Shown one piece after another: positions 18,001-30,200 of a DNA stretch of 64,000 bases. Below the pieces are notes generated by a model, which ran no database searches, had not been told where the DNA came from, and saw nothing but the letters and a program-made list of their open reading frames with translations. Origin of the DNA: Eledone cirrhosa (taxonomy: Eukaryota); NCBI GenBank assembly GCA_964016885.1, contig OZ024740.1, positions 46,624,001 through 46,688,000 on the forward strand, read 5' to 3'. Position 1 is the stretch's first letter. Each line of letters begins with the position of its first letter. Position numbers and translations under genes: made by a program.

Positions 18001-21000
18001 TTCTATAGCCACAACCCAGTCTAACAGAGTTACAATGTAACCTCTACTATAGCCACAACCCAGCCTAACAGAATTACAATGTAACCTCTACTATAGCCAC
18101 AACCCAGCCTAACAGAATTACAATGTAACCTCTACTATAGCCACAACCTAGCCTAACAGAATTACAATGTAACCTCTACTATAGCCACAACCCAGTCTAA
18201 CAGAATTACAATGTAACCTCTACTATAGCCACAACCCAGCCTAACAGAATTACAATGTAACCTCTACTATAGCCACAACCCAGCCTAACAGAATTACAAT
18301 GTAACCTCTTCTATAGCCACAACCCAGTCTAACAGAATTACAATGTAACCTCTACTATAGCCACAATCTAGCCTAACAGAATTACAATGTAACCTCTACT
18401 ATAGCCACAACCCAGCCTAACAGAATTACAATGTAACCTCTTCTATAGCCACAACCCAGTCTAACAGAATTACAATGTAACCTCTACTATAGCCACAACC
18501 CAACCTAACAGAATTACAATGTAACCTCGACTATAGCCACAACCCAGCCTAACAGAATCACAATGTAACCCCTACTATAGCCACAACCTAGTCTAACAGA
18601 ATTACAATGTAACCTCTACTATAGCCACAACCCAGTCTAACAGAATTCCAATGTAACCTCTACTATAGCCACAACCTAGCCTAACAGAATTCCAATGTAA
18701 CCTCTACTATAGCCACAACCTAGCCTAACAGAATTACAATGTAACCTCTACTATAGCCACAACCCAGTCTAACAGAATTACAATGTAACCTCTACTATAG
18801 CCACAACCTAGCCTAACAGAATTACAATGTAACCTCTACTATAGCCACAACCCAGTCTAACAAAATTACAATGTAACCTCTACTATAGCCACAACCTAGC
18901 CTAACAGAATTACAATGTAACTTCTACTATAGCCACAACCCAGTCTAACAGAATTACAATGTAACCTCTACTATAGCCACAACCTAGCCTAACAGAATTA
19001 CAATGTAACCTCTACTATAGCCACAGCCCAGTCTAACAGAATTACAATGTTACCTCTACTATAGCCACAACCTAGCCTAACAGAATTACAATGTAACCTC
19101 TACTATAGCCACAACCTAGCCTAACAGAATTACAATGTAACCTCTACTATAGCCACAACCCAGCCTAACAGAATTACAATGTAACCTCTACTATAGCCAC
19201 AACCTAGCCTAACAGAATTACAATGTAACCTCTACTATAGCCACAACCCAGCCTAACAGAATTACAATGTAACCTCTACTATAGCCACAACCCAGCCTAA
19301 CAGAATTACAATGTAACCTCTACTATAGCCACAACCTAGCCTAACAGAATTACAATGTAACCTCTACTATAGCCACAACCCAGCCTAACAGAATTACAAT
19401 GTAACCTCTACTATAGCCACAACCTAGCCTAACAGAATTACAATGTAACCTCTACTATAGTCACAACCCAGTCTAACAGAATTACAATGTAACCTCTACT
19501 ATAGCCACAACCTAGCCTAACAGAATTACAATGTAACCTCTACTATAGCCACAACCAAGCCTAACAGAATTACAATGTAACCTCTACTATAGCCACAACC
19601 TAGCCTAACAGAATTACAATGTAACCTCTACTATAGCCACAACCCAGTCTAACAGAATTACAATGTAACCTCTACTATAGCCACAACCCAGCCTAACAGA
19701 ATTACAATGTAACCTCTACTATAGCCACAACCTAGCCTAACAGAATTACAATGTAACCTCTACTATAGCCACAACCCAGTCTAACAGAATTACAATGTAA
19801 CCTCTACTATAGCCACAACCCAGCCTAACAGAATTACAATGTAACCTCTACTATAGCCACAACCCAGCCTAACAGAATTACAATGTAACCTCTTCTATAG
19901 CCACAACCCAGTCTAACAGAATTACAATGTAACCTCTACTATAGCCACAACCTAGCCTAACAGAATTACAATGTAACCTCTACTATAGCCACAACCCAGC
20001 CTAACAGAATTACAATGTAACCTCTTCTATAGCCACAACCCAGTCTAACAGAATTACAATGTAACCTCTACTATAGCCACAACCCAACCTAACAGAATTA
20101 CAATGTAACCTCTACTATAGCCACAACCTAGCCTAACAGAATTACAATATAACCTCTACTATAGCCACAACCCAGTCTAACAGAATTACAATGTAACCTC
20201 TACTATAGCCACAACCCAGCCTAACAGAATTACAATGTAACCTCTACTATAGCCACAACCCAGCCTAACAGAATTACAATGTAACCTCTTCTATAGCCAC
20301 AACCCAGTCTAACAGAATTACAATGTAACCTCTACTATAGCCACAACCTAGCCTAACAGAATTACAATGTAACCTCTACTATAGCCACAACCCAGCCTAA
20401 CAGAATTACAATGTAACCTCTTCTATAGCCACAACCCAGTCTAACAGAATTACAATGTAACCTCTACTATAGCCACAACCCAACCTAACAGAATTACAAT
20501 GTAACCTCGACTATAGCCACAACCCAGCCTAACAGAATCACAATGTAACCCCTACTATAGCCACAACCTAGTCTAACAGAATTACAATGTAACCTCTACT
20601 ATAGCCACAACCCAGTCTAACAGAATTCCAATGTAACCTCTACTATAGCCACAACCTAGCCTAACAGAATTACAATGTAACCTCTACTATAGCCACAACC
20701 TAGCCTAACAGAATTACAATGTAACCTCTACTATAGCCACAACCCAGTCTAACAGAATTACAATGTAACCTCTACTATAGCCACAACCTAGCCTAACAGA
20801 ATTACAATGTAACCTCTACTATAGCCACAACCCAGTCTAACAAAATTACAATGTAACCTCTACTATAGCCACAACCTAGCCTAACAGAATTACAATGTAA
20901 CTTCTACTATAGCCACAACCCAGTCTAACAGAATTACAATGTAACCTCTACTATAGCCACAACCTAGCCTAACAGAATTACAATGTAACCTCTACTATAG

Positions 21001-22528
21001 CCACAACCCAGTCTAACAGAATTACAATGTTACCTCGACTATAGCCACAACCTAGCCTAACAGAATTACAATGTAACCTCTACTATAGCCACAACCTAGC
21101 CTAACAGAATTACAATGTAACCTCTACTATAGCCACAACCCAGCCTAACAGAATTACAATGTAACCTCTACTATAGCCACAACCTAGCCTAACAGAATTA
21201 CAATGTAACCTCTACTATAGCCACAACCCAGCCTAACAGAATTACAATGTAACCTCTACTATAGCCACAACCCAGCCTAACAGAATTACAATGTAACCTC
21301 TACTATAGCCACAACCTAGCCTAACAGAATTACAATGTAACCTCTACTATAGCCACAACCCAGCCTAACAGAATTACAATGTAACCTCTACTATAGCCAC
21401 AACCTAGCCTAACAGAATTGCAATGTAACCTCTACTATAGTCACAACCCAGTCTAACAGAATTACAATGTAACCTCTACTATAGCCACAACCTAGCCTAA
21501 CAGAATTACAATGTAACCTCTACTATAGCCACAACCAAGCCTAACAGAATTACAATGTAACCTCTACTATAGCCACAACCTAGCCTAACAGAATTACAAT
21601 GTAACCTCTACTATAGCCACAACCCAGTCTAACAGAATTACAATGTAACCTCTACTATAGCCACAACCCAGCCTAACAGAATTACAATGTAACCTCTACT
21701 ATAGCCACAACCCAGCCTAACAGAATTACAATGTAACCTCTTCTATAGCCACAACCCAGTCTAACAGAATTACAATGTAACCTCTACTATAGCCACAACC
21801 TAGCCTAACAGAATTACAATGTAACCTCTACTATAGCCACAACCCAGCCTAACAGAATTACAATGTAACCTCTTCTATAGCCACAACCCAGTCTAACAGA
21901 ATTACAATGTAACCTCTACTATAGCCACAACCCAACCTAACAGAATTACAATGTAACCTCTACTATAGCCACAACCTAGCCTAACAGAATTACAATGTAA
22001 CCTCTACTATAGCCACAACCCAGTCTAACAGAATTACAATGTAACCTCTACTATAGCCACAACCCAGCCTAACAGAATTACAATGTAACCTCTACTATAG
22101 CCACAACCCAGCCTAACAGAATTACAATGTAACCTCTTCTATAGCCACAACCCAGTCTAACAGAATTACAATGTAACCTCTACTATAGCCACAACCTAGC
22201 CTAACAGAATTACAATGTAACCTCTACTATAGCCACAACCCAGCCTAACAGAATTACAATGTAACCTCTTCTATAGCCACAACCCAGTCTAACAGAATTA
22301 CAATGTAACCTCTACTATAGCCACAACCCAACCTAACAGAATTACAATGTAACCTCTACTATAGCCACAACCCAGTCTAACAGAATTACAATGTAACCTC
22401 TACTATAGCCACAACCTAGCCTAACAGAATTACAATGTAACCTCTACTAGAGCCACAACCTAGCCTAACAGAATTACAATGTAACCTCTACTATAGCCAC
22501 AACCTAGCCTAACAGAATTACAATGTAA
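1..22528 (+). repeat. 44-bp tandem satellite array, left arm (about 510 monomers; runs off the window start)
   Basis: Continuous head-to-tail copies of CTATAGCCACAACC(C/T)AG(C/T)CTAACAGAATTACAATGTAACCTCTA (first unit 1-44, next CTATAG at 45). Occasional 45-bp (ATGTTTAACTC, CCCATGTGTAAC) and 42-bp (CCTACTAAC) monomers. No unique spacers. Ends at ...TTACAATGTAA (22528). Confidence 0.99.
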
Positions 22529-22550
22529 TAATAATAATGAAATAATGAAA
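22526..22550 (-). repeat. LINE 3' tail: (TTTCATTA)2 followed by (TTA)3
   Basis: Plus strand TAATAATAA TAATGAAA TAATGAAA. The first TAA (22526-22528) is shared with the satellite. Short-repeat tails rather than poly(A) are typical of CR1/L2 elements. Confidence 0.85.
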
Positions 22551-22781
22551 TTATTGTGTACAGTGCTCAGGTGCACTACAACTCATCAAAGGTGCATGTA
22601 TAGAATAATGTACAAATGTCAGGAAAATAAACAGTGTATGAGTCATGATATAATAACAATAACAATAATGAAATATTGTGCACAGTGGCCAGGTGCACCA
22701 CAACCCATCAAAAAAGTGCTTGTACAGTACATAGGCCAATGCACAAACATCAGTAAAATGAACAGTGCACGAGTCATGATA
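22529..22781 (-). repeat. Diverged direct duplication of about 110-120 bp in the LINE 3' UTR (copies 22541-22650 and 22664-22781)
   Basis: Both copies start AATAATGAAAT(T)ATTGTG(T/C)ACAGTG..CAGGTGCAC(T/C)ACAAC(T/C)CATCAAA and end AACAGTG(T/C)A(T/C)GAGTCATGATA on the plus strand. Confidence 0.88.
22559..22580 (-). other. Predicted 3'-terminal RNA stem-loop of the LINE
   Basis: RNA sense UGUAGUGC-ACCUGA-GCACUGUA forms an 8-bp stem (two G-U pairs) with a 6-nt loop, about 30 nt from the 3' end. This is the position of the RT-recognition stem-loop in L2/CR1-type LINEs. Confidence 0.55.
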
Positions 22782-22814
22782 CACACATGTGTGCATGTGT
22801 ATGGAAGGGGCACA

Positions 22815-25580
22815 TCAGGTGTAGTTTTGGCGTATTTCGGGAAGCATGAGTGTCTTAAAGGATGCAGTGTCTCGGCAGCTAACAATTGACGCAGGTAGTT
22901 TGTTCCATGCTTCAGCAACTCTGAGCGTGAAAAAATGTCTGCGAAAGTCATGGGAGCTGTGCTGTTTTCTTATCTTGTAGGCATGTCCACGTGTGTTAGA
23001 CACATGGAGATCAAAGAGGCGCTCAGGGTTGCAGTTGGCGAGATGGTTAAAAACTTTGTGGGTATTCACCAAGTCCATTGCCAGACGTCGGAGCTTCAAT
23101 GAATCCATGCCCAGGGAAGCAAGGCGTTCAGAGTATGGTAGGTGTCTGATGGAGGGTATGCGCTTGGTTGCACGTCTCTGAACAGTTTCCAGGAGGTCAA
23201 TGTTCCGAGCAAGATAGGGGTTCCAGACTGATGATGCGAATTCCAAGTGTGGTCGCACCATAGCTGTATACAGTTTTAAATAGATGGCTGGAGAGCGGCT
23301 AACAAAGGTCTTGCTGAGCGATGCCAAGACACCCTCGGCCTTCTTGACAATCTTAGAGACATGCTTTGTCCAACACAAATCGTTGCTGACAGTAATGCCC
23401 AGGTCACGTTCACAAGAGGACTTTTTGATGTCAGTGTTGTGGAGGGAGTATGTGGACGCTGGATTTTTCCTTCCAAAATGCATGGTGGTACACTTGTCCA
23501 CAGCCAGCTTCAGTTGCCAGTCTGTGATCCATTGCTGCATTGTGTCCAGGTCTGATTGTAGGAAAGAGTTGTAAATTTCAGGATCAGTCCTTTTGATTTC
23601 AAGGTACAGCTTGATGTCATCTGCATATTTTAGTACCGTGGCATTCTGTAAGTTGGCATCTATGTCATTAATATATGCCACAAACAAAAGAGGACCAAGA
23701 ACAGATCCCTGTGGTACACCAGATGACATCTCATATGGTGAAGAATGCTGTCCTAGAACCGTGACTACTTCCCTTCGGCTGAGAATGAAGGATTTCAGCC
23801 AGTCGAAAAGATCATCTCTCACACCCATTGCAGAGAGTTTTGCCATAAGTCTTTTGTGTGGCACAGAATTAAAAGCCTTAGCAAAGTCAAGGTAAACAAC
23901 ATCCACCCATGAGCCGCTGTCAGTGATCCGGGTGATGTCCTCAAGGAACTCGATAAGCTGATCACAGCAGCTGGAGTTAGGGATAAATCCAAACTGTGAG
24001 GGCCGGATGAGGCTGTGAGAGCTCCAGAAGTTCCAAAGTGTTTCTCTGACACAGGATTTCATCAGTTTGGCCATACAGCTAGTAAGACTGACTGGACGAT
24101 AGTTGACAGGTGACATGCGGTTGCCCTTTTTGAACAGGGGAATGACACTGGCAGTTTTCCACTGCTCCGGAGTAGCACCATTGCTGAGACAGTATTGAAA
24201 GAAAAAAGAAAGCTGGCGCAAAAGGAAATCCCCGCCACGTTTGAGTAGCAGGTATGTCACACCATCAAGACCAGGGGAGGCATAGTTGCACTTATTCTTA
24301 AGGTGACGTCGCAACATTGCAGGTGTAAATTCCATAGTTGTTATGGAATTTGATGTTAGAGATGGTGGAGATGGTACATTCTGGTTTTCAACAGTAAAAA
24401 TACTTGCATAGCACTCAGCAATGAGTTCTGCGCATTCCTTGGGATCGTCAGTGATCTGGCTTGTATGGGGATTGCGAAGAGGACCAACTGGAGAGTGAGG
24501 TCTCTGCTTTGAATGAACATATTTCCAGAACACCTTACTGTCAGGATTGGTTGCGATGCACTGTTCAAATTCAAGCACTGCCTTCTTTGTCACTTGCTTG
24601 AGATGGTTAGAAGATTTATTCCACTTTTTTCTGTTGGCATCTGATCTATGCAGTTTATATTCCCGTTCAGCGTTCCGACGTTCTTTCCTGGCAAGTCGGA
24701 CCGCTGAAGTTTCCCAGATTGCACTTTTGGGGTGGTTATTTTTCCGCTTCCGTGGCACTGATGCTGCACACGCTATCCATATTGAGTCCAGGATGCTCTG
24801 GAGTATAGAGTTCACATCTCCAGAGTTATACATCTCATGCCAGTTTGGGCGCTGTAGCTCAGTGCAGTACAAGTTCCAATCCGCCCTCTTCCAATCAAAG
24901 CAAGCAGATTGGAGATGGCTCTGGTTTTTGTTGCTGCCCTCAAGTGCCAGATTGGCAATGATCATAGCATGATCAGAGTCGCCTAGAGGTTCCTCAGTAG
25001 TACAACTGATAACCACTTCAGGAGTAGTGGTGAAGATCAGGTCCAAAGTGTTGTCACCTCTTGTTGGAGAGGTGACTACTTGTGACCAGTTTGAGTCCAG
25101 CACTAGTTCAAGGAAATCGTTTGCACCCTGTGGCCAACGAAAGGTTTCCCAATCGATCTCAGGATGATTGAAGTCACCTGCAATAAACACATAAGTGGCT
25201 GTTTTCTTGGCAGCAACTCTGAGGATATCGCAAAGCTGTGCGTCCTGATGGAAGTTTGGGGGGCGATAAACAACACCGAGCAGAAGTGTTGACATGGTCA
25301 TACGTATGTCACAGAAAAAAACTTCTTCCTGTGATTCGTTCAAATCAACGCAAGGAATTACCGAAAAGTTTGAACGAACGTAGACCATCACACCACCACC
25401 ACGGCGGTTAATGCGGTCCTTGCGGAAAAGGTTGTACCCAGTAATGGTGAAAACCCCATCACAGAGTAAGGAATGTGCCCATGTTTCCGTGACTGTGATG
25501 AAGTCAGGGTCGATGCTTCTGACGTAGGATTCGAACAGATGTATCTTGTTGCATAAACTGTGAGCATTTAAGGACAACAA
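22815..25580 (-). CDS. LINE ORF2: apurinic-like endonuclease plus reverse transcriptase. The track start is a TTG; the frame is open upstream to 25688 and the true initiation mode is uncertain
   Basis: 921-aa stop-free frame. APE motifs: LNAHSL, VTETW, RGGGV, VYRPP, GDFN, PTRGDNTLDLIF, SDH. RT motifs: SPGLDG, PLFKKG, NYRPVSLTS, QFGF, YLDFAKAF, SGVPQGSVLGPLLF, YADD. CR1-type tail motifs: ERDLG, RPHLEFASSVWNP, VQRRATK, YSERL, TRGH, FFTLRVAEAWNKLP. Confidence 0.96.
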   Translation of the reverse strand: MLSLNAHSLCNKIHLFESYVRSIDPDFITVTETWAHSLLCDGVFTITGYNLFRKDRINRRGGGVMVYVRSNFSVIPCVDLNESQEEVFFCDIRMTMSTLLLGVVYRPPNFHQDAQLCDILRVAAKKTATYVFIAGDFNHPEIDWETFRWPQGANDFLELVLDSNWSQVVTSPTRGDNTLDLIFTTTPEVVISCTTEEPLGDSDHAMIIANLALEGSNKNQSHLQSACFDWKRADWNLYCTELQRPNWHEMYNSGDVNSILQSILDSIWIACAASVPRKRKNNHPKSAIWETSAVRLARKERRNAEREYKLHRSDANRKKWNKSSNHLKQVTKKAVLEFEQCIATNPDSKVFWKYVHSKQRPHSPVGPLRNPHTSQITDDPKECAELIAECYASIFTVENQNVPSPPSLTSNSITTMEFTPAMLRRHLKNKCNYASPGLDGVTYLLLKRGGDFLLRQLSFFFQYCLSNGATPEQWKTASVIPLFKKGNRMSPVNYRPVSLTSCMAKLMKSCVRETLWNFWSSHSLIRPSQFGFIPNSSCCDQLIEFLEDITRITDSGSWVDVVYLDFAKAFNSVPHKRLMAKLSAMGVRDDLFDWLKSFILSRREVVTVLGQHSSPYEMSSGVPQGSVLGPLLFVAYINDIDANLQNATVLKYADDIKLYLEIKRTDPEIYNSFLQSDLDTMQQWITDWQLKLAVDKCTTMHFGRKNPASTYSLHNTDIKKSSCERDLGITVSNDLCWTKHVSKIVKKAEGVLASLSKTFVSRSPAIYLKLYTAMVRPHLEFASSVWNPYLARNIDLLETVQRRATKRIPSIRHLPYSERLASLGMDSLKLRRLAMDLVNTHKVFNHLANCNPERLFDLHVSNTRGHAYKIRKQHSSHDFRRHFFTLRVAEAWNKLPASIVSCRDTASFKTLMLPEIRQNYT

Positions 25581-25636
25581 TTTGTACCCTGCTCGCAGTT
25601 TATGATGGTGTGTAGAGGGTGGCAGGTTGTTCTGGT

Positions 25637-27010
25637 TTAGTTTCCCAGAGTTGTAGCAGTTTTTACATTGCCAGTTATTGTGGGTAGATCACACTCAGAC
25701 CAGCTGGTATCTCTCTTCCACGTTTCACCAGCCTTGACAAACCTCCAGATCTGCCCATCATCACGCAGACTGAAACTTTCATCTTGTGCTGAGTTCCGAT
25801 TCAAGGAAGCTGCAGCACGTAGTTTTGGACGTACATGGGGTGGTAGGCCTGGGCGTGTTCGGAAGGTAATCCGATTTTCACGCCCAGCTTTAGCAGAGGC
25901 CAGATGATATGAGGTTGCCTCTGCGGGGTCCGAGAAAGACAGCCTGATGAGTCTGGGTTTGGGACCAGGTCGACCAAGGCGGAGGGCACCCTTTGGGGGA
26001 ACACAGCCTAGGTCTTTGGCTGAGCTGGCAGCAAATGCCTGAAGATCAGCCTTGTCCTCTGGTACCCCAATGGCAATCACTTCATGGGTAGCAGATTCCG
26101 CAGTCTTTTCAGTCTTTCCAGCAAAAGGTACAGGGAGATTCTTTAGCAAGGCATTCCGATAAGACCCCTCATTGTGGGGTCCTACCCGAATGCTTGCCTC
26201 TATTCCTGCAACTTCCCTTCTCAGAGCAGAAATCATTAGTTGCAGTTCCGCAAAATCTGTACTGGTCGGTTGTTGTTGTTGTTGCTGCTGCTGCTGCTGT
26301 CGTTGTTGGTGATGATGATGTTCCTCCACGGGAATGGCAGGGGAGGACACAGTCGCAGGTTGTTGCTGTTGTTGTTGTTGTTGGTGATGATGATGTTTCT
26401 CCACGGGAATGGCAGGGGAGGACACAGTCGCAGGTTGTTGCTGTTGTTGTTGTTGGTGATGATGATGTTCCTCCACGGGAATGGTAGGGGAAGACACAGT
26501 CACCAGTTGTTGGTGTCGAGATGTACTGGGAGTGGAAGACATGGGTTGTTGTTGTTTCTGATGTTCTCCCACAGGAATAACAGTAGAAGCCAGTGTCATA
26601 GGTTTTTGCCGTTGTTCAGTAACAATGGTAGAGGAAGACACAGTCATTGGTTTTTGTTGTTGTTGTTGTTTTTCAATAACATTAATAACATTCGTGGAGG
26701 CAGGCACACAGGCCAGACACTGAAAGGACCAGGATTTTAGCTGGACCATCTCCCATATTCCATCCATCATAGCATTATGATGTCTCTTTTTTTGGCCTGG
26801 GATCCTCCGGAAGCCTGTGGCGCATTGAAGGCAGACAGAAATGCGACAGGTTCCACATTCGACCCAGCGATTACGGAACGAGTTTTCGGGTTCCGCACAG
26901 ATATGGCAGATGTGATTTTCTGGGCAATGTTCTATCTTGGGACATCGGCCGGTTTTGTCGCATATTTCATCGATGGATATCACCATGGCAATTTTGTTAT
27001 TTCTACCCAT
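25637..27010 (-). CDS. LINE ORF1 protein (PHD-like zinc finger, Q/H-rich repeats, coiled coil, RRM-like C-terminal region)
   Basis: 457 aa, ATG at 27010, TAA at 25639-25637. CHIC...WVECGTCRISVCLQC...WSFQCLAC resembles a PHD finger (PHD domains are known in CR1-like ORF1s). FAELQLMISALRREVAGIEASI is heptad-like. VIAIGVPED...LRLGRPGPKPRLIRLSF resembles the ORF1 RRM pattern of CR1/L2/L1-type elements. Confidence 0.9.
   Translation of the reverse strand: MGRNNKIAMVISIDEICDKTGRCPKIEHCPENHICHICAEPENSFRNRWVECGTCRISVCLQCATGFRRIPGQKKRHHNAMMDGIWEMVQLKSWSFQCLACVPASTNVINVIEKQQQQQKPMTVSSSTIVTEQRQKPMTLASTVIPVGEHQKQQQPMSSTPSTSRHQQLVTVSSPTIPVEEHHHHQQQQQQQPATVSSPAIPVEKHHHHQQQQQQQQPATVSSPAIPVEEHHHHQQRQQQQQQQQQQPTSTDFAELQLMISALRREVAGIEASIRVGPHNEGSYRNALLKNLPVPFAGKTEKTAESATHEVIAIGVPEDKADLQAFAASSAKDLGCVPPKGALRLGRPGPKPRLIRLSFSDPAEATSYHLASAKAGRENRITFRTRPGLPPHVRPKLRAAASLNRNSAQDESFSLRDDGQIWRFVKAGETWKRDTSWSECDLPTITGNVKTATTLGN
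25640..25646 (-). promoter_or_regulatory. Candidate -1 programmed ribosomal frameshift slippery site G_GGA_AAC
   Basis: Plus strand 25640-25646 is GTTTCCC. The minus strand reads CTG GGA AAC TAA in the ORF1 frame, i.e. X_XXY_YYZ in the correct phase. The -1 frame (GGG AAA CTA AAC CAG...) continues without a stop into ORF2. Confidence 0.65.
26268..26670 (-). repeat. Coding minisatellite in ORF1: three near-identical 72-75-bp units (TVSSP(A/T)IPVE(E/K)HHHHQn) plus degenerate copies, containing CAA/CAG/CAT triplet runs
   Basis: GGTGATGATGATG anchors at 26308, 26383 and 26455 (periods 75 and 72, both multiples of 3). Diverged units (TVSSSTIVTEQRQKPM, TLASTVIPVGEHQKQQQPM) extend to about 26670. 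Confidence 0.92.
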
Positions 27011-27220
27011 CCGTAGAAAAACACAGAATGTAAACGATATAGGTTTAGCGCACTTGATTACGATAGAAATAAAATGTCTGTTTTTTTGTGTATTTTGTTT
27101 CCGTTTTCCTAAATGTTGTGTGTGTACAGAAGAGTCTGAATTACATTACATGTAAACAAATAAATATACTGCGTAAGTTAAATGAAACGTACTGTAGAAG
27201 GCAGTTGTTTATTAACAGCG
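27011..27220 (-). promoter_or_regulatory. LINE 5' UTR (about 210 bp, AT-rich; presumed internal promoter)
   Basis: Non-satellite sequence between the ORF1 ATG and the satellite junction. The promoter role is inferred from general LINE biology, not from a recognised motif. Confidence 0.6.
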
Positions 27221-27221
27221 A

Positions 27222-30200
27222 ACTCTACTATAGCCACAACCCAGCCTAACAGAATTACAATGTAACCTCTACTATAGCCACAACCCAGTCTAACAGAATT
27301 ACAATGTAACCTCTACTATAGCCGCAACCTAGCCTAACAGAATTACAATGTAACCTCTACTATAGCCACAACCTAGCCTAACAGAATTACAATGTAACCT
27401 CTACTATAGCCACAACCCAGCCTAACAGAATTACAATGTAAACTCTACTATAGCCACAACCCAGCCTAACAGAATTACAATGTAACCTCTACTATAGCCA
27501 CAACCCAGTCTAACAGAATTACAATGTAACCTCTACTATAGCCACAACCCAGCCTAACAGAATTACAATGTAACCTCTACTATAGCCACAACCCAACCTA
27601 ACAGAATTACAATGTAACCTCTACTATAGCCACAACCTAGTCTAACAGAATTACAATGTAACCTCTACTATAGCCACAACCCAGCCTAACAGAATTACAA
27701 TGTAACCTCTACTATAGCCACAACCCAGCCTAACAGAATTACAATGTAACCTCTACTATAGTCACAACCCAACCTAACAGAATTACAATGTAACCTCTAC
27801 TATAGCCACAACCTAGTCTAACAGAATTACAATGTAACCTCTACTATAGCCACAACCCAGCCTAACAGAATTACAATGTAACCTCTACTATAGCCACAAC
27901 CCAACCTAACAGAATTACAATGTAACCTCTACTATAGCCACAACCTAGTCTAACAGAATTACAATGTAACCTCTACTATAGCCACAACCCAGCCTAACAG
28001 AATTACAATGTAACCTCTACTATAGCCACAACCCAACCTAACAGAATTACTATGTAACCTCTACTATAGCCACAACCTAGCCTAACAGAATTACTATGTA
28101 ACCTCTACTATAGCCACAACCTAGCCTAACAGAATTACAATGTAACCTCTACTATAGCCACAACCCAGCCTAACAGAATTACAATGTAACCTCTACTATA
28201 GCCACAACCCAGCCTAACAGAATTACAATGTAACCTCTACTATAGCCACAACCTAGCCTAACAGAATTACAATGTAACCTCTACTATAGCCACAACCCAG
28301 TCTAACAGAATTACAATGTAACCTCTACTATAGCCACAACCCAGCCTAACAGAATTACAATGTAACCTCTACTATAGCCACAACCCAACCTAACAGAATT
28401 ACAATGTAACCTCTACTATAGCCACAACCTAGCCTAACAGAATTACAATGTAACCTCTACTATAGCCACAACCCAACCTAACAGAATTACAATGTAACCT
28501 CGACTATAGCCACAACCTAGCCTAACAGAATTACAATGTAACCTCTACTATAGCCACAACCTAGCCTAACAGAATTACAATGTAACCGCTACTATAGCCA
28601 CAACCAAGTCTAACAGAATTACAATGTAACCTCTACTATAGCCACAACCTAGCCTAACAGAATTACAATGTAACCTCTACTATAGCCACAACCTAGCCTA
28701 ACAGAATTACAATGTAACCTCTACTATAGCCACAACCCAGTCTAACAGAATTACAATGTAACCTCCACTATAGCCACAACCTAGCCTAACAGAATTACAA
28801 TGTAACCGCTACTATAGCCACAACCCAGTCTAACAGAATTACAATGTAACCTCTACTATAGCCACAACCTAGCCTAACAGAATTACTATGTAACCTCTAC
28901 TATAGCCACAACCCAGTCTAACAGAATTACAATGTAACCTCTACTATAGCCACAACCTAGCCTAACAGAATTACATTGTAACCTCTACTATAGCCACAAC
29001 CCAGCCTAACAGAATTACAATGTAACCTCTACTATAGCCACAACCCAGTCTAACAGAATTACAATGTAACCTCTACTATAGCCACAACCCAGTCTAGCAG
29101 AATTACAATGTAACCTCTACTATAGCCACAACCCAACCTAACAGAATTACAATGTAACCTCTACTATAGCCACAACCTAGCCTAACAGAATTACAATGTA
29201 ACCTCTACTATAGCCACAACCTAGCCTAACAGAATTACAATGTAACCTCTACTATAGCCACAACCTAGTCTAACAGAATTACAATGTAACCTCTACTATA
29301 GCCACAACCCAGTCTAACAGAATTACAATGTAACCTCTACTATAGCCACAACCTAGTCTAACAGAATTACAATGTAACCTCTACTATAGCCACAACCCAG
29401 TCTAACAGAATTACAATGTAACCTCTACTATAGCCACAACCTAGCCTAACAGAATTACAATGTAACCTCTACTATAGCCACAACCTAGCCTAACAGAATT
29501 ACAATGTAACATCTACTATAGCCACAACCCAGCCTAACAGAATTACAATGTAACCTCTACTATAGCCACAACCTAGTCTAACAGAATTACAATGTAACCT
29601 CTACTATAGCCACAACCTAGTCTAACAGAATTACAATGTAACCTCTACTATAGCCACAACCCAGTCTAACAGAAATACAATGTAACCTCTACTATAGCCA
29701 CAACCCAGCCTAACAGAATTACAATGTAACCTCTACTATAGCCACAACCTAGTCTAACAAAATTACAATGTAACCTCTACTATAGCCACAACCTAGCCTA
29801 AGAGAATTACAATGTAACCTCTACTATAGCCACAACCTAGCCTAACAGAATTACAATGTAACCTCTACTATAGTCACAACCCAGTCTAACAGAATTACAA
29901 TGTAACCTCTACTATAGCCACAACCCAGTCTAACAGAAATACAATGTAACCTCTACTATAGCCACAACCCAGCCTAACAGAATTACAATGTAACCTCTAC
30001 TATAGCCACAACCCAGTCTAACAGAATTACAATGTAACCTCTACTATAGCCACAACCTAGTCTAACAAAATTACAATGTAACCTCTACTATAGCCACAAC
30101 CTAGCCTAACAGAATTACAATGTAACCTCTACTATAGCCACAACCTAGCCTAACAGAATTACAATGTAACCTCTACTATAGTCACAACCCAGTCTAACAG

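Follow-up and report, generated by a model that had tools for sequence, protein, structure and literature searches.

Long interspersed nuclear elements (LINEs) of the CR1 type are widespread in animals, and no settled account exists, even for L1, of the way in which LINEs translate their second open reading frame (ORF2). Frameshifting was named as a possibility when overlapping LINE ORFs were first described, the silkworm element SART1 uses stop-start coupling for ORF2, and the heptamer G_GGA_AAC serves as a -1 frameshift site in SRV-1, FIV, and PEG10. This heptamer and the others found here are named among the most shifty in a review, where G_GA is a tolerated variant (PMC5009743). According to a legend in a review, a -1 frameshift is required for ORF2 translation in TRE5-A and TRE3-A of Dictyostelium (PMC5911963), and elements that lack long terminal repeats (non-LTR elements) have therefore been credited with this route before. 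This article considers a 64,000-nucleotide stretch of Eledone cirrhosa DNA (assembly GCA_964016885.1, contig OZ024740.1, positions 46,624,001 to 46,688,000; hereafter the window) in which a CR1-type LINE, encoded on the minus strand, carries G_GGA_AAC directly before the stop codon of ORF1. Conservation of this junction among relatives points very probably to programmed -1 ribosomal frameshifting that would yield an ORF1-ORF2 fusion.

For the CR1 group, frameshifting was not found in the literature searched, whose coverage excluded most older and subscription papers and Repbase reports. The word "frameshift" is absent from the portions covered of an ORF1 survey of 448 Jockey-group elements (PMC4120745), the sole non-LTR passage in the covered sections of a 2016 frameshifting review concerns Drosophila HeT-A and TART, and the parts of four further papers that were covered (PMC11835228, PMC4700185, PMC3592465, PMC5006619) add nothing on CR1.

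In the window copy, ORF1 ends ACT CTG GGA AAC TAA, which places G_GGA_AAC (25646-25640) in X_XXY_YYZ phase; it is the only canonical heptamer in phase among the 458 codons of ORF1. The ORF2 frame lies in the -1 register, is open over 25688-22815, and overlaps ORF1 by 52 nt, so that a slippery site in the phase of the upstream frame is joined to a -1 frame open into ORF2. The heptamer, its phase, the -1 register, and the 52-nt overlap had been reported in a preliminary description, and the sequence bears them out, as it does the arithmetic of the predicted fusion (457 + 941 = 1398 aa). The first in-frame ATG (25388) is codon 101 of the frame and codon 65 when counted from TTG 25580, the number given earlier, and falls downstream of both the Asn of motif I (25568) of the apurinic/apyrimidinic endonuclease-like (APE) domain and the TETW motif, again as described. 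Because a comparable site arises with probability 0.15 when the window ORF1 alone is shuffled synonymously, a single copy proves little, and the evidence for a frameshift signal is conservation across relatives.

Within the 3.0-Gb assembly, 1,287 candidate junction matches were found, of which 40 were scored. The heptamer is present in 29/30 young copies, the window being counted among them, although these were the best DNA matches and are therefore biased towards intact junctions. The exception, L019 (loci and families are denoted by L numbers), has two changes in the heptamer and nonetheless intact ORFs; it alone among the 30 copies shares with the window a change of the APE motif I Arg to His (25561). 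In an older subfamily, the heptamer is retained in 28/30 copies and the stop in 30/30, and 31/160 nearby positions differ from the window, none of them within -6 to +10 of the site. None of the 30 older copies has an in-frame AUG in the interval from heptamer to motif I, where the preliminary description held that one should be lacking if the idea were sound. The length of the 52-nt overlap is not conserved. Older subfamilies have a -1 frame that begins just 9-18 nt ahead of the heptamer, leaving little room for entry anywhere but at the site. A less biased sample was obtained by searching with the portion of ORF2 downstream of the shift site. Since 0/150 rows exceed 1024 aa of open frame, the fused ORF that had been proposed as a refutation is not seen. 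A private indel in the window copy was considered and is ruled out by the young copies, the older copies, and the absence of fused ORFs. Contigs from organisms I and J differ at flanking bases 25647 and 25636, with no heptamer or stop change among the differences listed, and one of these contigs has two 3-nt deletions upstream of the junction. When the genome of the window was itself searched with a distant APE, all 5 loci checked belonged to this family.

More distant relatives with the same type of ORF1 retain the arrangement. The family L061 (59% APE identity) reads CAG GGA AAC TAG, that is, G_GGA_AAC-UAG in the -1 register within unrelated flanks. A search with the C-terminal 187 aa of ORF1 against 1.84 billion representatives gave 56 proteins, 48 of which have an intact terminal WxRxxxW motif; all 48 carry Gly-Asn (GN, 38), KN (5), or EN (5) in a variable tail, and none has neither. 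GN stands 3-33 residues past the WxRxxxW motif and is followed by 0-18 residues, so that, on these tails, an ORF1 stop directly after the predicted site is not essential across the clade. Shuffling within tails (2000 runs) placed GN in a mean of 6.3 tails (maximum 15), against 38 observed. In 0/38 tails is GN preceded by a residue that lacks a G-ending codon (P ~1.5e-4), which matches what G_GGA_AAC requires.

A wider survey drew on the best 80 of 347 confirmed stretches from a metagenome scan, which with the window included formed 67 clusters; 15/80 loci were dropped because the APE motifs were not in one frame, and others because ORF1 was shorter than 150 codons. Among the 49 clusters with an ORF1 candidate, the ORFs overlap in the -1 register in 35 and in +1 in 3, and do not overlap in 11, mostly through broken frames; seven of the non-overlapping rows show, by eye, the -1 register and a heptamer with the frame broken, and were excluded from the counts. 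In 22/35 clusters (window included), the open -1 overlap contains a canonical heptamer, whereas 1000 synonymous shuffles gave 2.5 on average and never more than 7; once tolerated XXX variants are admitted, 30/35 have one, and the shuffles average 3.5 and peak at 10. The two wrong phases hold heptamers in 2 and 4 families, as against 22 in the ORF1 phase. Two ORF1 protein motifs picked blind to codons gave 43 instances in 39 clusters (G_GAA_AAC 20, A_AAA_AAC 18, G_GGG_GA(C/A) 5), in 43/43 of which the preceding wobble base equals the first base of the next codon; Asn at these sites is AAC in 38/38, compared with 39% of Asn codons elsewhere. By both the synonymous shuffles and this wobble covariation, conservation goes beyond the constraint imposed by the protein. 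Within ORF1, the -1 frame is open for a median of 16.5 nt before the heptamer and 88.5 nt after it, staying open for up to 231 nt past the site. An AUG at least four codons ahead of motif I is absent in 23/35 families. ORF1 is closed by U_UUA_AAC-UAG in L062 and L114, U_UUU_UUA is carried by L079 and L120, and the slippery sites are spread over several branches of a quick APE tree. A putative signal of the same type (A_AAA_AAC, G_GAA_AAC, U_UUA_AAC, U_UUU_UUA) is the mark of the junction in many other CR1 lineages, and the conservation of heptamer and -1 register on which the preliminary description staked its case is upheld in family copies and diverged families alike. No relatives were found among the viral contigs searched, and the N-termini of predicted ORF2 homologs were uninformative on the start site, since gene-calling programs render any alternative start codon as Met.

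Some further features of these families were noted. In five (L063, L088, L089, L091, L102), the G_GAA_AAC or A_AAA_AAC of relatives is replaced by non-canonical G_GGG_GAC or G_GGG_GAA, and the -1 frame opens just ahead of the site; G_GGG_GA(C/A) is possibly a new slippery type. In ten A_AAA_AAC families (L072, L096, L101, L103, L104, L106, L115, L123, L130, L135), ORF1 runs ~170-230 nt beyond the heptamer, so that a long segment codes in two frames and the last domain of ORF1 would be missing from a fusion. G_GAA_AAC families (e.g., L070, L077, L083, L086, L112) have a near-fixed GUGGUAGG ~12 nt past the heptamer, which could be an unstructured stimulator or reflect a double-coding constraint. 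A second LINE lineage in the same genome (the L036-L060 group, L142, L143), which has a Cys/His-rich ORF1 and does not fall within the CR1 group of the tree, carries U_UUU_UUA in ORF1 phase and ORF2 in -1; across its 16 loci, the heptamer precedes motif I in 10 and lies in the ORF2 frame in 7, of which 4 are still open.

Programmed -1 frameshifting would operate at this junction as follows. Most ribosomes would halt at UAA and yield the ORF1 protein (ORF1p), which has an RNA recognition motif (RRM) and C-terminal domain (CTD) of L1-like fold, while a small share would shift by -1 at G_GGA_AAC, as the tRNAs leave GGA and AAC to re-pair on GGG and AAA, and read on into ORF2 to make a 1398-aa fusion of ORF1, endonuclease, and reverse transcriptase (RT). 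A ratio of high ORF1p to low fusion would be set in this way, and the fusion could join ORF1p oligomers on its own RNA. Re-pairing at both codons, the restriction to ribosomal phase, and a -1 frame that is open after and not before the site are as tandem tRNA slippage predicts. With less assurance, a broader statement is favored: that across much of the CR1 clade, and possibly in the second LINE lineage of this genome, endonuclease and RT have no other source than a Gag-Pol-like fusion with ORF1p that -1 frameshifting produces, at a site rewritten in several versions on unrelated ORF1 types and working without a classic downstream structure.

Several results weigh against frameshifting. RNA folding, in a test that used a looser choice of sites with 49 loci included and a method blind to pseudoknots, detected no excess structure 5-65 nt past the sites (z < -2 in 3/47 segments, mean z -0.09) and no difference between site and control segments (P 0.30 and 0.34); no classic 3' stem-loop or pseudoknot 5-9 nt downstream was found across the 47 sites by this pseudoknot-blind folding. 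The weak 3' stem proposed earlier (ACAAC/CCUGC pairing) is not conserved and was set aside, since older-subfamily copies have substitutions in its 3' arm that the 5' arm does not compensate. The site is of the non-canonical form G_GGG_GA(C/A) in 4/35 clusters, and the site of L131 is cut off by a -1 stop (1/35 clusters). An in-frame AUG lies within 60 nt of the ORF1 stop in 8/35, with the AUGs of L101, L130, and L131 overlapping the stop, and L061 has an AUG two codons ahead of the motif I Asn. The heptamers of L105, L116, and L120 are each compatible with chance (P 0.22-0.37). The GN-tail evidence is at the protein level, the DNA for that clade coming from this genome, L061, and organisms I and J. 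The families, moreover, are related and fall in a handful of clades, so that their counts do not represent separate events.

Since no classic 3' stimulator is conserved, the efficiency of slippage is probably low, and a low basal slip rate may be enough for a LINE. Pausing at the stop codon, a bound protein, and ribosome queuing at a distant hairpin are possibilities for what drives the slip. A long hairpin does lie downstream in the window, and was rejected as a classic stimulator since its 35-nt spacer is too long; in the older subfamily it has lost four middle pairs, and one A:U pair is changed to G:C in 19/30 copies and broken in 11/30. L061 has a different stem ~11 nt past the site (z -2.6).

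The alternative that survives best, though improbable as a general account, is that ORF2 is a product in its own right, begun at a near-cognate CTG (25625 or 25598) or TTG (25580 or 25577) past the ORF1 stop through termination-reinitiation or translational coupling. The failure of folding to find a stimulator favors it, as do the retention of CTG 25625 and CTG 25598 in the older subfamily and the AUGs near the ORF1 stop in 8/35 families, overlapping it in three; the last, with the AUG of L061, imply that reinitiation may operate in some lineages. In L1, moreover, ORF2 works with its first ATG changed to any other sense codon (PMC1965478). Reinitiation nevertheless leaves unexplained the codon-level fixation of the heptamer and the GN tails, the bias of 35 to 3 towards the -1 register, and the -1 frames that stay open so far inside ORF1 past the heptamer, and the CTGs are not present in L061.

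A second alternative takes the heptamer as a by-product of a conserved ORF1 C-terminal motif (S/Q-G-N) and codon bias, with ORF2 reached by other means. K-N-L and E-N-Y/F do belong to conserved ORF1 protein motifs, and the evidence from the GN clade is mostly protein sequence; yet synonymous shuffles that hold the protein fixed yield far fewer sites than are observed, the wobble base varies in step with the codon that follows (TCA AAA vs TCG GGG, GTG GAA), and the distance of GN from the folded domain ranges over 3-33 residues within a tail modeled at low confidence, which together make this explanation very unlikely. Least likely of all is RNA polymerase slippage or splicing that gives a minority RNA with ORF1 and ORF2 fused, for although six consecutive A occur in the A_AAA_AAC sites of relatives, G_GGA_AAC and G_GAA_AAC lack any long homopolymer, the signal is tied to ribosomal phase (22 families vs 2 and 4), and, because a LINE copies its own RNA (cis preference), fused copies should accumulate, yet 0/150 rows exceed 1024 aa of open frame.

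Apart from its junction, the element (Table 1) is a young, high-copy CR1-type LINE with the 3' simple-repeat tail, in place of LTRs, and the small or absent target-site duplication that are traits of CR1; its 3' end has an ATT-type tail, and the target duplication at the satellite junction is at most 2 bp. Tentative placement is by a quick APE-only tree, in which the element falls in an 87-supported group of 68 rows that includes two bird CR1-type proteins. The 44-bp satellite of the window is broken once, by this LINE (22529-27222, minus strand); it has a strong strand skew and seems to occupy 1-22528 and 27223-64000, an extent given by a TRF run on 21000-29000 and judged elsewhere from uniform composition. 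On contig C28 (124.71-126.35 Mb), ~27 same-strand LINE copies lie mostly 30-80 kb apart with scores nearly all equal, which suggests amplification inside a higher-order repeat.

ORF1 is, on its modeled fold, of type II (L1-like), with an RRM and CTD resembling those of L1 ORF1p. The AlphaFold model of this region has a pLDDT of 83, the tail after the domain being of low confidence; the top ten Foldseek matches are all human L1 ORF1p (best E 4e-5), and structural comparison by VIA gave Z 9.4 and rmsd 2.4 over 80 aligned residues, a result that other RRMs tie. Searching PDB sequences with a profile of ORF1 gave no match under E 0.02, and the named close relatives of ORF1 are Octopus vulgaris proteins only. 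The PHD-like Cys spacing of the N-terminus was seen by eye, without a Pfam PHD match. At 26289-26516, a 72-75-nt repeat present three times encodes His/Gln tracts whose length differs between copies, as in L144, where ORF1 is 25 aa shorter.

Table 1. Features of the CR1-type LINE in the window (positions of the 64,000-nt stretch).
Feature	Position	Strand	Remarks
Full-length CR1-type LINE, ~4.7 kb	22529..27222	(-)	Sits in 44-bp satellite array; no clear target-site duplication
ORF1, 457 aa	25637..27010	(-)	ATG 27010 to TAA 25639-25637; Cys-rich N-terminus, Q/H-rich repeats, RRM and C-terminal domain, Gly-Asn-stop at end of tail
Cys-rich PHD-like region of ORF1	26708..26908	(-)	Cys spacing by eye; no PHD match in Pfam
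RRM and C-terminal domain of ORF1	25700..26092	(-)	AlphaFold model and Foldseek; L1 ORF1p-like fold
Slippery heptamer G_GGA_AAC, ORF1 phase	25640..25646	(-)	Predicted -1 shift site
ORF1 stop TAA, adjoining heptamer	25637..25639	(-)	Present in 30/30 older copies
ORF2 frame of 957 codons, in -1 register to ORF1	22815..25688	(-)	941 codons after shift site; first ATG 25388
APE endonuclease domain	24969..25574	(-)	Pfam PF03372 and PF14529; motif I Asn 25568-25566
Reverse transcriptase domain	23439..24125	(-)	Pfam PF00078, E 9e-36
Long stem-loop	25552..25604	(-)	z -3.8; begins 35 nt past heptamer; outer stem partly kept in older subfamily
3' UTR	22529..22814	(-)	Two similar ~130-nt units in tandem, ATT-type repeat tail on each; read from sequence

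A defined seven-base site makes the question of ORF2 translation testable. Should frameshifting be the route, the real CR1 enzyme would be an ORF1-ORF2 fusion, annotated ORF2 proteins that begin at a downstream AUG would be truncated, and retrotransposition assays and CR1-based tools would require an intact junction; animal genomes would hold thousands of endogenous -1 frameshift cassettes, given 1,287 candidate junctions in this one family.

The observations are best explained as a known -1 frameshift mechanism in CR1 LINEs, where it was not found established in the literature searched, and it is this setting that is new. In its Cys-rich N-terminus and L1-like RRM-CTD, ORF1 resembles the described type IIC or CR1 subgroup 5 of Metcalfe and Casane (PHD and transposase 22 ORF1; PMC4120745), the likeness being to the published description, and the APE of the element groups with bird CR1-type proteins, as in CR1-lineage LINEs. 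Human and mouse L1 and silkworm SART1 likewise have a bicistronic RNA and low-level ORF2, the L1 start codon being dispensable, but L1 differs in its non-overlapping ORFs, for which reinitiation or internal entry has been proposed. The retroviral and PEG10-type gag-pol signals share the heptamer class and the predicted control of the ratio of structural protein to enzyme, whereas the present element is non-LTR, has no protease domain among its Pfam matches, and has no conserved stem-loop found 5-9 nt downstream by pseudoknot-blind folding. Dictyostelium TRE5-A and TRE3-A are likewise APE-RT LINEs with two ORFs and, according to the review legend, a -1 shift, although theirs is a social-amoeba lineage that targets tRNA genes and carries a zinc finger in ORF2.

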